Source: Squalus acanthias
Lineage: Eukaryota
Direction of reading: 5' to 3'
Assembly: GCA_030390025.1 (NCBI GenBank)
Contig: CM059432.1
Coordinates: 41,046,001-41,110,000, forward strand
DNA length: 64,000 bases
The notes under the pieces were generated by a model that had not been told where the DNA came from, did no database searches, and worked only from the letters and a program-made list of their open reading frames with translations. Made by a program: the position numbers and the translations under genes. Below are positions 4,367-56,139 of the stretch, one piece after another. Numbering within the stretch: position 1 is the first letter of the stretch; each line of letters opens with the position of its first letter.

Positions 4367-4502
4367 GCGATAGCAAAATACTGCGGATGCTGGAAAATTG
4401 AAACAACAACAGAAAACGCTGGAAAAACTCAGCAGGCCAGGCAACATCCATGGAGAGAGAAACAGAGTTAACGTTTCAGGTCGAAACCCTTCGTCAGAAC
4501 TA
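4367..4502 (-). mobile_element. Solo Penelope terminal repeat (pLTR) insert carrying a hammerhead motif
   Basis: Reverse complement of about 6537-6640. Flanked by the duplication CTACTATA (4359-4366, 4503-4510). Confidence 0.8.
4466..4501 (-). ncRNA. Minimal type I hammerhead ribozyme motif
   Basis: Minus strand reads AGTT-CTGACGA-A-GGGT-TTCG-ACCT-GAAA-CG-TT-AACT: core CUGANGA/GAAA, stem I AGUU/AACU, stem II with a UUCG loop, palindromic stem III. Confidence 0.75.
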
Positions 4503-5122: not shown

Positions 5123-5195
5123 GTTCATAGGTTCCTATTATCAGCAAAGTTCCATGGTAATATATAATAAAAGCAAATGAAACAAGATCATTCCT

Positions 5196-6637
5196 TTCCG
5201 GTACATTGATGACTGTATCGGTGCCGTCTCCTGCTCTCGCCCTGAACTAGAACATTTCATTCACTATGCTTCCAATTTCCACCCTTCCCTCACCTTCACA
5301 TGGTCCATCTCCGACTCTTCCCTTCCCTTCCTCGACTTCTCCATCTCCATCTCTGGGGATAGGTTATTGACTAACATTCACTACAAGCCCACTGACTCCC
5401 ACAGCTACCTGGACTACACTTCCTCCCACCCCGCCTCCTGTAAGGACTCTATTCCATTCTCCCAGCTTCTCCGTCTCCGCCGCATCTGCTCTGATGATGC
5501 CACCTTCCATACCAGTGCTTCCGACATGTCTTCCTTTTTCCTCAACCGAGGATTCCCCTCTACCGTGGTCGACACGGCCCTCGACCGTGTCCGTTCTATC
5601 TCCCGCACATCTGCCCTCACCCCTGCCCCTCCCTCCCGGAACCACGATAGGGTTCCCCTTGTCCTCACCTTTCACCCCACCAGCCTCCACATTCAACGGA
5701 TCATCCTCCGCCATTTCCGCCACCTCCAGCGTGATCCCACCACCAAACACATCTTCCCCTCACCTCCCCTTTCAGCATTCCGTAGGGACCGCTCCCTCCG
5801 CGACACCCTAGTCCACTCCTCTACCACCCCCAGCACCCCTTCCCCTTCGCCCGGCACCTTCCCGTGCACGCGCAGGAGATGCAACACATGCCCTTATACC
5901 TCCCCTCTTCCCACTGTCCAGGGCCCCAAACACCCCTTCCAGGTGAAACAGCGATTTACTTGTACTTCCTGCAATTTAGTATACTGTATTCGCTGCTCAC
6001 GATGTGGACTCCTCTACATTGGGGAGACCAAACGCAGATTGGGTGACCGCTTTGCGGAACACCTCCGTTCAGTCCATAAGGGGGACCCCGAGCTTCCGGT
6101 GGCCTGTCACTTTAATTCACCGCTTCACTCCCACTCTGACTTCACCGTCCTCGGCCTATTACACTGTTCCACGGAAGCTCAGCGTAAGCTCGAGGAACAG
6201 CACCTCATCTTTCGTTTAGGCACGCTACAGCCCTCTGGACTCAATATCGAGTTCAACAATTTTAGATCATAACCTCAGCTCCAATCACATTTATATTTTA
6301 TTTTATCCACCCTTTTATTTGTCCCCCCCCACCTTTTTTTTTCCTCCTAGAAGCTGGCAGCTGTCCTTCATTCTGCCAGTGGATTTCACACTTCATTCAG
6401 CCTTAATCCACCTCTAGCCTTGCATATCTCTTAATGTCTCTTAATGTCTCTTCATCTCCCCCTTTGTTCCTTTATCCCCTCCCCCTTTTCCCAGCTTTAC
6501 CCTGGCCTTAAATCTATTTGATTTCCGGCTCTTCCCAGTTCTGATGAAAGGTCATCGACCTGAAACGTTAACTCTCTTTCTCTCTCCACGGATGCTGCCT
6601 GGCCTGCTGAGTTTTTCCAGCGTTTTCTGTTGTTATT
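5196..6637 (+). mobile_element. Young 5'-truncated Penelope-like element: open frame 5196-6272 (RT C-terminal part plus GIY-YIG endonuclease) followed by a pLTR
   Basis: The frame is open from FRYIDD at 5196 into ORF 5367-6272 (358 aa, no stops). CxxxxCxxC linker and VYCIRCSRCGLLYIGETKR..RFAEH GIY-YIG motif. Flanked by the duplication TCATTCCT (5188-5195, 6638-6645). Confidence 0.92.
6537..6573 (+). ncRNA. Minimal type I hammerhead ribozyme motif in the Penelope pLTR
   Basis: AGTT-CTGATGA-A-AGGTC-ATC-GACCT-GAAA-CG-TT-AACT. Predicted cleavage is after GUU at 6569. Confidence 0.8.
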
Positions 6638-32574: not shown

Positions 32575-32914
32575 TCATCACCGGCATTTATTGCCCATCC
32601 CTAATTGCCCTTGAGAAAGTGGTGGTGAGCTGCCGCCTTGAATACAACTGAGTGGCTTGCTAGGCCATTTCAGAGGGCAGTTAAGAGTCAACCATATTGC
32701 TGTGGGTCACATATAGGCCAGACCAGGTAAGGACAGCAGATTTCCTTCCCTGAAGGACATTAGTGAAGCAGATGGGTTTTTACGACAATCCAGTCATTTC
32801 ATGGTACCATTACTGTTACTAGCTTTTTTTTAAATTTCAGCTGCCATGGTGGGATTTGAACTCACGTCTCCGGATCATTAGTCCAGTAACATAACCACTA
32901 TGCTACCGTACCCC
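32575..32914 (-). mobile_element. tRNA-derived SINE whose 3' tail matches the LINE at 1-1058
   Basis: A box TAGCATAGTGG (32905-32895) and B box GAGTTCAAATCCC (32863-32851). Tail 32583-32641 matches about 952-1012. Confidence 0.8.
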
Positions 32915-48151: not shown

Positions 48152-48280
48152 ATGAGAAGATCCGCAGCTCCGAGTCAGCTCAGCGGCAACGCAGCAAAAA
48201 AATTCAAATTCATCCCACCGGGGAAAAGTGATAGTCGGGAGCCTGTCTCAGGAGCCACCAGACTCTTGGAAAGGAACGAG
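48152..48280 (+). CDS. RAD54B: DNA repair and recombination protein RAD54B, first coding exon
   Basis: MRRSAAPSQLSGNAAKKFKFIPPG matches the known vertebrate RAD54B N-terminus (MRRSAAPSQL.GN..KK.KFIPPG). 43 codons, then donor GAG|GTACAA (phase 0). FSBP lies downstream as expected. Confidence 0.92.
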
Positions 48281-53175: not shown

Positions 53176-53980
53176 GAAGTGCTGGTTGTTTCTTGTTAGC
53201 CATGATGGCTTGGCTTGTTCCTTTCTATGTAATTGCTCTGTTATGTTTGTTATTTTTTTTTCATGTTAAATACACTATCAAAGCAATGCATGTTAATCAT
53301 AGCTCACAACTGCAGTGGTCTGCAGTAGTGGAATTATGTCCAGCTTGGCTAATTACAGGTGATGGTTTTTTCATAGAATCATAGAAAGTTACAGCACAGA
53401 AGGAGGCCATTTCGGCCCATCATGTCCGCGCCGGCCAACAAAGAGCTATCCAGCCTAATCCCACTTCCCAGCTCTTGGTCCGTAGCCCTGCAGGTTAGAG
53501 CATCCCAAGTGCACATCCAAGTACTTTTTAAATGTGGTTAGGGTTCCTGCCTCTACCACTCTTTCAGGCAGTGAGTTCCAGACTCCCACAACCCTCTGGG
53601 TGAAGAAATTTCCCCTCAAATCCCCTCTAAACCTTCCCCCAATTACTTTAAATCTGTGCCCCCTGGTTTTTGACCCCTCTGCTAAGGGAAATAGGTCCTT
53701 TCTATCCACTTTATCTATGCCCCTCATAATTTTATACACCTCAATAAGGCCTCCCCTCAGCCTCCTCTGTTCCAAGGAAAACAGACCCAGCCTATCCAGT
53801 CTTTCCTCATAGCTAAGATTCTCTACTCCCGGCAACATCCTTGTAAATCTTCTCTGTATCCTCTCTAGTGCAATCACATCTTTCCTGTAATGTGGTGACC
53901 AGAACTGCACTCAGTACTCTAGCTGAGGCCTAACTCGTGTTTTATACAGTTGAAGCATAACCCCCCTGCTCTTGTATTCT

Positions 53981-54207
53981 ATTGAGAGGTCGCACAACAC
54001 CAGGTTATAGTCCAACAGTTTTATTTGAAATCAGAAGCTTTCGGAGCTATCGATTGCCCCTTCCTCAGGTGAAGTCACCTGAGGAAGGGGCAATCGATAG
54101 CTCCGAAAGCTTGTGATTTCAAATAAAACTGTTGGACTATAACCTGGTGTTGTGCGACCTCTCAATTTTGTCCACCCCAGTCCAACACCGGCATCTCCGC
54201 ATCATGA
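53981..54207 (+). mobile_element. Non-coding Penelope-type foldback insert: 92-bp inverted arms plus a 41-nt tail
   Basis: Arms 53981-54072 and 54075-54166 have 1 mismatch and a 2-nt loop. CTTGTATTCTAT is duplicated at 53971-53982 and 54208-54219. Confidence 0.85.
54075..54116 (+). ncRNA. Minimal type I hammerhead ribozyme motif (mirror copy on the minus strand at 54031-54072)
   Basis: TCAC-CTGAGGA-A-GGGGC-AATCGATA-GCTCC-GAAA-GC-TT-GTGA: stem I UCAC/GUGA, stem II GGGGC/GCUCC, palindromic AGCU stem III. Confidence 0.8.
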
Positions 54208-55057
54208 CTTGTATTCTATGCCACGGCTAATAAAGGCAAGCATTCCGTATGCCTTCTTAACCACCTTATCTACTTGGCCTGCTACCTTCAGGGATCTGTG
54301 GACATGCACTCCAAGGTCCCTTTGTTCCTCTGCACTACTCAGTGTCCTACCATTTAATGTGTATTCCCTTTCCTTGTTAGCCCTCCCCAAATGCATTACC
54401 TCACACTTCTCCGGATTGAATTCCATTTGCCACTGTTCTGACCAATTTATTGATATCTTCCTGCAGTCTGCAGCTTCCTTCTTCAGTATCAACCACACAG
54501 CCGATTTTAGAATCATCTGCAAACTTCTTAATCATACCCCCTATATTCAAGTCTAGATCGTTGATATATACCACAAAAAGCAAGGGACCTAGTACTGAGC
54601 CCACTGGAAACAGCCTTCCAGTCACAAAAACACCCATCAATCATTACCCTCTGCTTCCTGTCTCCGAGCCAGTTTTGAATCCAACTTGACACTTTGCCCT
54701 GGATCCCATGGGCTTTTAACATCGTGACCAGTCTGCCATGTGGAACCTTATCAAAAGCCTTGCTAAAGTCCATATACACTGCATCAAATGCACTACCCTC
54801 ATCTACCCTCCTTGTTACCACCTCAAAAAATTCAATCAAGTTTGTCAGACACGACCTTCCCTTAACAAATCCGTGCTGACTATCCTTGATTAATCCGTGT
54901 CTTTCTAAATGAAGATTTATCCTGTCCTTCAGAATTCTTTCCAATAATTTTCCCACCACTGAGGTTAGGCTGGCTGGCCTGTAATTACTCGGTCTATCCT
55001 TTTCTCCCTTTTTAAACAAGGGTACCACATTAGCAGTCCTCCAGTCCTCTGGCACCA

Positions 55058-55148
55058 ATTTTAAATAAATCTGTTGGACTATAACCTGGTGTTGTGCGAC
55101 TTCTCATTTTTGTCCACCCCAGTCCAACACCGGCATCTCCGCATCATG
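55058..55148 (+). mobile_element. Shorter copy of the 3' end of the 53981-54207 element
   Basis: Matches about 54116-54206. ACCA is duplicated at 55054-55057 and 55149-55152. Confidence 0.8.
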
Positions 55149-56139
55149 ACCACACCTGAAGCCAGAGAGGATTGAAAAATGATGGTCAGGGCCTCTGCAA
55201 TTTCCTCTTTTGCTTTGCTTAACAGCCTGGGATACATTTCATCCGGGCCTGGGGATTTATCCACTTTTAAAGCTGCTAAACCCCTTAATACTTCCTCTCT
55301 CACTATGTTTATTTCATCTAATATTTCACACTCCTCCCCCCGATAGCAATGTCTGCTTCGCCCCTCTCCTTTGTGAAAACAGACGCAAAGTATTCATTAA
55401 GAACCCTACCGATGTCTCCTGCCTCCACACACAGATTACCCTCATGATCTCTAATAGGCCCTATCCTTTCTTCAGTTATCCTCTTACTCTTAATATATTT
55501 ATAAAACATCTTTGGGTTTTCCTTGATTTTACTTGCCAAGAATTTTTCATGCTCTCTCTTTGCTTTCCTAATATCCTTTTTAATTGCACCCCTGCACTTT
55601 CTGTATTCCTCTAAAGATTCTGGAGTATTTAGCCCTCGGTATCTGTCATACGCCTCCCTTTTTTTCTTTATCCTACCCTGTATGTCTCCAGACATCCAGG
55701 GGCTCTAGATTTGTTAGTCCCACCTTTTTTCTTTAAGGGCACATGTTTGGTCTGAACCCTCCGGATCTCCTCCTTGAATGCCTCCCACTGCTCTGACACT
55801 AATTTGCCTTCAAGTAGCTGTTTCCAGTCCACTATGGCTAAATCCCCTCTGAGCTTAGCAAAATTTGCTTTTCCCCAATTTAGAATTTTTATTCCTGGTC
55901 TATCCTTGTCCTTTTCCATAACTACCTTAAATCTAACAGAATTATGGTCACTAGCACCAAAATGCTGCCCCACTGATACACCTTCTACCTGCCCAGCTTC
56001 ATTCCCTAAAACTAAGTTTTTGAAGTTGCTTTGGGGGCAGTTTGATCATATTCGAGGTGGCACTGGGGATCCATGGTCAAGATTCATTAATGAACCAGAC
56101 AGCAGCTACAAGGAGCAATGTTATTACAATTTCCTGATG

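Follow-up and report, generated by a model that had tools for sequence, protein, structure and literature searches.

What is the short palindrome, with a hammerhead motif on each strand, that interrupts a LINE fragment in a long intron of the dogfish Squalus acanthias, and how did it come to be built? It was singled out in a first-pass annotation of the window, the 64,000-nucleotide stretch of DNA analysed here. As a single locus it carries little weight, since it is debris left by a retrotransposon in non-coding sequence of a gene. The family to which it belongs is weightier: its roughly 90,000 ends, many of them nearly unmutated, allow tail pairing, arm identity and stop positions to be counted.

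Structure of the insert

The insert is a nearly perfect fold-back (Table 1). Its arms, 53981-54072 and 54075-54166, pair at 91 of 92 positions around a 2-nt loop, AG, with a lone mismatch at 54034, and the predicted fold has an energy of -184.9 kcal/mol versus -65 in shuffled sequences (z = -24; 0 of 200 shuffles as good). The 41-nt tail shows no pairing with the left arm. Twelve base pairs of target are duplicated around the insert, 54208-54219 repeating 53971-53982. Among the loci compared, the host repeat is found uninterrupted at this site in five further copies, each with these 12 bp only once. The hairpin, loop, tail, duplication and one hammerhead motif per strand had all been described in the first-pass annotation and were found again. 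Two of its details change. The length between the target duplications is 225 nt, the 227 nt given earlier taking in two left-duplication bases that are part of the pairing as well; and the fold-back point, placed at the first base of stem I, in fact turns at parent position -3, three bases beyond stem I (the loop AG and the shared T54075). The mismatch does, as described, disrupt stem I of the antisense motif, 54034 lying opposite G54113 in the innermost pair. C54076, within the joint, could be a cap-templated base.

Table 1. Coordinates of the insert, its parts and its surroundings (window positions).
Feature	Position	Strand	Basis or remark
First coding exon located in the host gene	48152..48280	+	Motif scan; insert in the intron behind this exon
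Host: decayed RT-encoding LINE fragment, split by the insert	53455..55103	-	Pfam RVT_1
Left target-site duplication, 12 bp	53971..53982	+	Last 2 bases also pair with the right arm (tail-less end)
Tail-less arm, parent -3 to about +92	53983..54075	-	Sequence comparison
Minimal hammerhead motif, minus strand	54031..54072	-	Innermost pair of stem I lost through the substitution at 54034
Fold-back joint	54073..54076		Loop AG; shared T54075 is parent -3 in one arm and +1 in the other
Minimal type I hammerhead motif, plus strand	54075..54116	+	Sequence, fold, covariation over 30 variants, descriptor of PMC4209133
Tailed arm, paired portion, parent +1 to +92	54075..54166	+	Identity to parent
41-nt tail	54167..54207	+	Parent ORF start codon (ATG, 54204-54206) in its final bases
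Right target-site duplication	54208..54219	+	Sequence
Second family piece, 92 nt, non-inverted, tailed	55058..55149	+	96% identical; without hammerhead core

That the palindrome is an artefact of assembly or library preparation is extremely improbable. No contig spans the locus among the short-read contigs of six runs, which would fit an artefact, but insert and host are both high-copy and such contigs hold nothing locus-specific; two contigs in the eight sets from these runs (33 and 37 nt, run X2) cross the AG joint, too short for the bridging criterion, and possibly derive from the assembled sample itself. Low depth over 54038-54085 in two runs of one study, presumably RNA, was set aside. 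The different flanks, the 12-bp duplication with its known empty site, the one-sided tail and the recurrence of this architecture at dozens of loci that were inspected all argue for a genuine insertion, as does the mismatch, which is private to one of 278 motif instances from overlapping loci.

The reading frame of the host LINE, which we take to be of the CR1 type, continues on both sides of the insertion site. Helicase exons located by motif scans are ordered on the + strand from ~150.8 to 216.6 kb, and the insert is intronic even if an exon escaped these scans; the intron after 48281, behind the first coding exon found, is seemingly about 100 kb long. The host gene is presumably RAD54B, judging by its motifs. 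Of the earlier description, a CR1 in a RAD54B intron, an RT-bearing LINE in an intron of a gene with helicase exons stands, both names being presumptive.

The host LINE holds further copies of the family. The second piece in the window lies in the same LINE copy, begins a few bases past the predicted ribozyme cut and is flanked by a repeat of merely 3-4 nt. At or near the LINE position corresponding to 53971-53982, several independent insertions of the family occur in other orientations or variants (L068, L071, L188, L002), and a second recurrent LINE site is occupied at L004, L012, L014 and L057; these repeated hits on shared LINE sites constitute a target preference. Elsewhere in the window, a tRNA-like match at 32848-32906 (-), barely above the Rfam threshold, is probably a SINE head.

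The parent element

The family was located by pattern (exact-sequence) searches of the 3.7-Gb genome. For the hammerhead region these gave 2,107 matches, and two tandem pairs were retrieved (L046 and L047). In L047, an end repeat identical to 54075-54207 at 133 of 133 nt stands before a single ORF of 892 amino acids, with the second direct end repeat (pLTR) 3,137 bp further on; pLTRs flank the ORF in L046 too. The L047 element, full-length and with the same terminal sequence, is a candidate for the autonomous partner that the first-pass annotation proposed to look for, and the 100% identity across 133 nt bears out the young age proposed there. The remark in that annotation that the window lacks a coding parent also holds, the second, non-inverted 92-nt piece being the only other member of the family found there.

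The 892-residue protein matches Pfam RVT_1 at 35.5 bits (cut-off 29.6). A C-terminal GIY-YIG region with two cysteines between its motifs is visible in the translation; the Pfam GIY-YIG profile gave no match to the protein at E 0.001. The linker between the reverse transcriptase (RT) and endonuclease (EN) regions has the form CX4CxxC, and a CX2-5CxxC linker at this place marks the Neptune and Nematis clades (PMC8557442); by this motif, the parent looks Neptune-type. The protein shares 33% identity (E 3e-47) with a window ORF that has a weak GIY-YIG match. A different Penelope-like family is present in the window at 5181-6272 (+), with that same protein identity to the parent, and hammerhead-like cores of this other family lie near 4497, 6541, 7683, 22245 and 25705.

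The insert is almost certainly a stub of a Penelope-like element (PLE): its right arm and tail match an end repeat of the full-length L047 element without a difference, down to the start codon of the parent ORF in the final bases of the tail, and the inverted end repeat with its tail matches the insertion unit of EN+ PLEs, a truncated inverted copy with a one-sided tail and a target-site duplication (TSD). A far larger version of this design is found at L046:1678-7854 (G000:C1, 2.36 Mb), where a near full-length element is accompanied by an inverted arm of 2,903 bp at 99.3% identity; each of the two ORF copies has a frameshift.

Hammerhead motifs

On the plus strand, stem I is formed by 54075-54078 with 54113-54116, the core by 54079-54085 followed by an extra A at 54086, and stem II by 54087-54091 with 54100-54104; GAAA occupies 54105-54108, and stem III is palindromic. 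The conserved core, stems I and II and the palindromic stem III are all present, in keeping with the minimal hammerhead annotated earlier, and the cut is predicted to fall after 54112. Thirty variants, chosen through a core-motif search and related by descent, have an invariant core and a variable position 7 and loop II. Pairing holds in 97.4% of 270 cells, and 12 of the 30 variants show a C-G/U-A switch in stem I. Pairing and covariation were matched by none of 500 shuffles, and the number of pairs with a double change by 46 of 500. Searches with Rfam gave no hammerhead match to the hairpin or the parent repeat, at the gathering score or at E 10.

The fold-back joint extends the plus-strand stem I to 8 bp. 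When the host gene is transcribed, however, the whole hairpin is expected from the fold to prevail and to mask the sense hammerhead. Minimal type I hammerheads have been described for PLEs, the single motif tested being without in-vitro cleavage, and dual hammerheads on opposite strands, 100-700 bp apart, are already on record in these elements (PMC4209133). We propose that both motifs are passengers in the insert, with putative activity.

Could the host nevertheless use the structure, as an intronic hairpin or as a ribozyme switch in the pre-mRNA? The predicted fold, on the sense strand of the gene, is very stable, but such a role is highly improbable, given that the insert is identical to a recently copied element, lies within another repeat in an intron of ~100 kb and belongs to a counted set of more than 1,300 such stubs. 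Rfam yields just below-threshold generic hairpin matches and no known miRNA family at the gathering score (best 57 bits versus 140). Arm-to-arm mismatches at 38 loci number 8 in 2,907 columns, two of them A/G, a count that concerns genomic DNA and not RNA editing. The lone minimal hammerheads on record, without in-vitro cleavage (PMC4209133), likewise speak against a switch.

Hammerhead cleavage as the setter of the fold-back point is rejected for now, the arm ends showing no sharp excess at the cut. By hand count over 50 listed loci (100 arms), the five positions surrounding the cut take about 4, 6, 9, 8 and 8 of the ends. Among the same 50 loci there are no blunt cut-to-cut joints, and a single locus has both arms at the cut, with a 6-nt spacer.

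Fold-backs across the genome

A 30-mer from the right arm has 90,712 exact matches genome-wide. Among the first 100 of these (3.2 Mb of contig 1), 62 form 31 back-to-back pairs within 3.5 kb when paired by hand, with a gap of no more than 250 nt in 18 pairs; a very rough scaling from these first 100 matches gives about 16,000 short fold-backs in the genome. Direct counts are 284 fold-backs with 0-6 nt between the stem I starts and 543 with 7-36 nt, and 523 and 577 at two downstream anchors, in partly overlapping sets; stubs of the insert's kind counted in this way number more than 1,300. Fold-back points are spread all along the element, and the arms range from ~30 bp to 2.9 kb.

Of these 31 unselected pairs, 29 have one tailed and one tail-less arm; none has two tails, and two have none. 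In the 29, one end lies at 128-140 (one arm continuing into the ORF) and the other at 84-106. Duplications of 12-13 bp flank 20 of the 31 pairs, none being found in four, and TSDs range over 8-15 bp. The apex is unpaired over 149-2,781 nt in 11 pairs. A tail-to-tail pair of the same family, with both ends tail-less (L102:309-2275), is the reverse of the usual head-to-head arrangement, and at L199-L204 (G000:C4, 179.56-179.58 Mb) one stub has been multiplied at least ninefold within a tandem array.

The exact junction of the insert occurs 77 times, so that the earlier question of whether fold-backs recur at the same base is answered in the affirmative. The 31 of these copies examined in detail carry seven stem II variants, all present in ordinary copies as well, and in all 31 both arms carry the same variant (two differ by one substitution), the chance of such sharing being 0.19 per locus. 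Duplications of 11-14 bp are found in 28 of the 31. The further-reaching arm of the asymmetric joint is tailed in 18 copies and tail-less in 13. Because the junction occurs on seven variants and the side of the tail is not fixed, each insertion must make the joint anew.

These copies also bear on the idea of an independent unit that spreads by transcription and renewed insertion in fold-back form. The 77 exact junctions and the similar overall length of the copies are what a young, non-autonomous, retrozyme-like unit would produce, but copies of a single master would all have the same variant and the tail on the same side, whereas the seven variants are shared with ordinary copies and the tail lies on either side. 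Other joints are about as recurrent, 7 of the 50 loci listed joining at the palindromic stem III, for example, and the tandem head-to-tail repeats that define animal retrozymes (bioRxiv 10.64898/2026.07.22.740005) are absent. A self-propagating unit is accordingly very unlikely. Of the first-pass reading, youth and derivation from a PLE remain; the notion of an independent unit falls with the seven variants, the two tail sides and the fold-backs all along the element.

A proposed insertion mechanism

How PLEs build their inverted repeats and tail is termed undefined in the cited part of PMC8557442. We consider it most probable (about 0.6) that the insert arose in a single insertion event in which two cDNAs were primed from opposite target strands. 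The enzyme of the element would cut both DNA strands, and the same short stretch of RNA would be copied from each cut. With the cuts staggered by 12-14 nt there would be two primers, one starting at the tail end (+133) and the other ~40 nt further in (+92), both copying one single RNA molecule. The 3' ends of the two cDNAs would then join through 1-2 nt of pairing, followed by fill-in. At the insert, one cDNA would reach the 5' end of the RNA at -3, giving a strong-stop-like product of the leader, and a cap-templated C would supply two nucleotides of pairing and so favour precisely this joint. Priming of one RNA from two strands would explain together the one-sided tail, the identical arms, the duplication and a loop that comes from either arm.

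The protein of an anole PLE cuts and extends both strands, uses two RT start sites that bound the tail and is predicted to form a dimer; the cited portion of that paper draws no tie between two-strand extension and inverted copies (PMC11167929). The proposed mechanism is read from finished insertions, and some points tell against it. The in-vitro data come from an element of the Poseidon clade, whereas the parent of the insert looks Neptune-type; arm identity could also follow from copying of one cDNA or from one active source per cell; and the overlaps at the junctions fit ordinary end joining as well. Overlap of at least 1 nt between target and element is found in 21 of 27 loci at each end, 9 of the 36 loci having been dropped from scoring for an anchor mismatch or for want of a duplication.

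Identical arms, and the palindromic apices too, would be explained directly by snap-back, or self-priming, in which the cDNA or an antisense RNA folds at its 3' end, the hairpin is copied and an endonuclease resolves it to leave a one-sided tail. Self-priming on antisense RNA has been put forward for the head-to-head structures of rotifer elements (PMC3846280), and the tail has been ascribed to endonuclease-mediated resolution (PMC8557442). This route is nonetheless unlikely. Snap-back of a tailed first strand requires the tailed arm as the source of the loop and fails because 13 of the 31 loops come from the tail-less arm. Apices that stay unpaired over 149-2,781 nt, as in 11 of the 31 unselected pairs, are also hard to accommodate, and the two arm ends match the two start sites on sense RNA seen in vitro (PMC11167929), as the two-primer mechanism would have it. 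Self-priming of an antisense RNA may still apply.

The stop at position -3

Arm ends were counted from four young variants, a stop being scored where a non-parent base stands in front. Of 9,463 arms that reach -3, 833 end there, against 233 at -1 and 118 at -5; stops at -3 are 3.6-7 times commoner than at neighbouring positions, and ~91% of arms continue beyond. Locus-by-locus inspection covered -3 and -5 and showed true joints in 30 of 30 and 28 of 30 cases, respectively; a single tandem array supplied six of those at -5. A separate upstream mapping of arm ends, limited by the break points of variants, was used for just 2 of 30 ends at -3. Because the stop falls at -3 and not at +1, the link of stem I to the fold-back point is probably indirect.

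Of the upstream variants, 19 have a TATA-like box, and in 16 of these it starts 30-32 nt ahead of the -3 A. Compared with the initiator consensus, the -3 A has an initiator-like context, kept across variants with differing spacers. The same TATA/initiator layout has been described for a rotifer element (PMC3846280); the Penelope promoter of D. virilis is TATA-less (PMC2377424). Whether -3 is the transcription start is, in our estimate, close to an even bet, with the layout making it a likely candidate.

The two-primer mechanism could also hold with a different cause for the -3 excess, namely a pause at an RNA structure or bound protein beside stem I; this alternative disputes the transcription-start step alone, and we regard it as a substantial, if lesser, possibility. 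Position -3 lies just three bases from stem I, and none of the 30 inspected -3 copies continues into the ORF, although full-length copying of an RNA begun there should carry them into it. The signal of a cap is weak as well: the base before the joint is G in 49, C in 40 and A in 11 of the first 100 cases at -3, versus 38, 37 and 25 at -5 (hand counts), and many of the G's can equally be assigned to the other arm, with a clearly extra G in about 3-5 of 30 inspected loci. On the other side, the ratio of G to A before the joint differs between the two positions (49:11 versus 30:25, p = 0.002, with the tandem array counted once), the predicted fold of the parent stem I is weak (z = -0.65), and the conserved TATA-like box at its usual distance, the initiator-like -3 and the matching rotifer layout (PMC3846280) also speak against a pause.

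Implications

If -3 is a transcription start, its stop predicts a capped RNA 5' end at exactly that base. Tentatively, PLEs may routinely prime two cDNAs per RNA from opposite target strands, at two fixed starts, the smallest stubs being strong-stop copies of the capped mRNA leader, whose first 40 bases would be the hammerhead. Were the two-primer and leader reading true, it would account at once for the inversion of the end repeat and for a tail on one side only, and a ribozyme would stand at the 5' end of the mRNA. The predicted fold also makes it plausible that a transcript of the insert would be double-stranded RNA and a substrate for Dicer or ADAR, a property not special to this locus; if many such intronic hairpins are transcribed, they would be a large source of long double-stranded RNA. 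In a search judged by titles, opening lines of abstracts and selected passages, with most subscription literature and older Penelope reviews outside it, no publication came up that tallies tail pairing or connects the ends of stubs with a transcription start.

Comparison with known systems

In the twin priming of L1, two target strands prime cDNAs on one RNA, leaving an inversion between the duplications. The proposed origin of the insert is similar in that two strands would prime one RNA and the inversion is flanked by duplications; it differs in that the inverted segments of L1 do not overlap, whereas the arms of the insert copy the same stretch from two fixed starts. MITEs and fold-back DNA transposons have terminal inverted repeats flush with a TSD of fixed length, and their copies share one fixed structure. 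They are ruled out here by the one-sided 41-nt tail, the TSDs of 8-15 bp and the variable apex.

Like the non-LTR retrozymes of animals, the insert is non-coding, bears hammerheads and derives from PLE end repeats; retrozymes are arranged in tandem, head to tail, and are thought to be mobile as units, whereas the insert is inverted and one-off (bioRxiv 10.64898/2026.07.22.740005). Assignment to this class was rejected, the insert being a single inverted unit whose junction is remade on seven variants and which therefore does not spread as a unit. Its motifs share with the minimal hammerheads of PLEs the 4-bp stem I, the extra base before stem II, the palindromic stem III and the variable loop II, but the two motifs abut and stem II has 5 bp rather than 7-8 (PMC4209133). 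The insert resembles the anole Poseidon element PAc in that two ends lie ~40 nt apart at the limits of the tail, a stem-loop is predicted there and targets are mostly AT-rich; unlike PAc, the parent is Neptune-type by motif and its ORF begins at the tail end, not in stem II (PMC11167929).

The closest counterparts are the insertion units of EN+ PLEs, for which head-to-head inverted pLTRs with a one-sided tail of 30-40 bp and a TSD have already been published (PMC8557442, PMC3846280, PMC2377424). The inverted ends, tail on one side, TSD, palindromic junction and strong 5' truncation are shared. The cited portions of these papers describe the layout but offer no figures on how tails pair, how alike the arms are or where they stop; the Squalus acanthias genome adds the tail-pairing counts, the identity of arm variants and the excess of stops at -3, about 31 nt behind a TATA-like box. 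Unlike the published units, the insert is minimal, without an ORF, and its kind is extremely numerous. It is an instance of a known insertion pattern, not a new ribozyme element.
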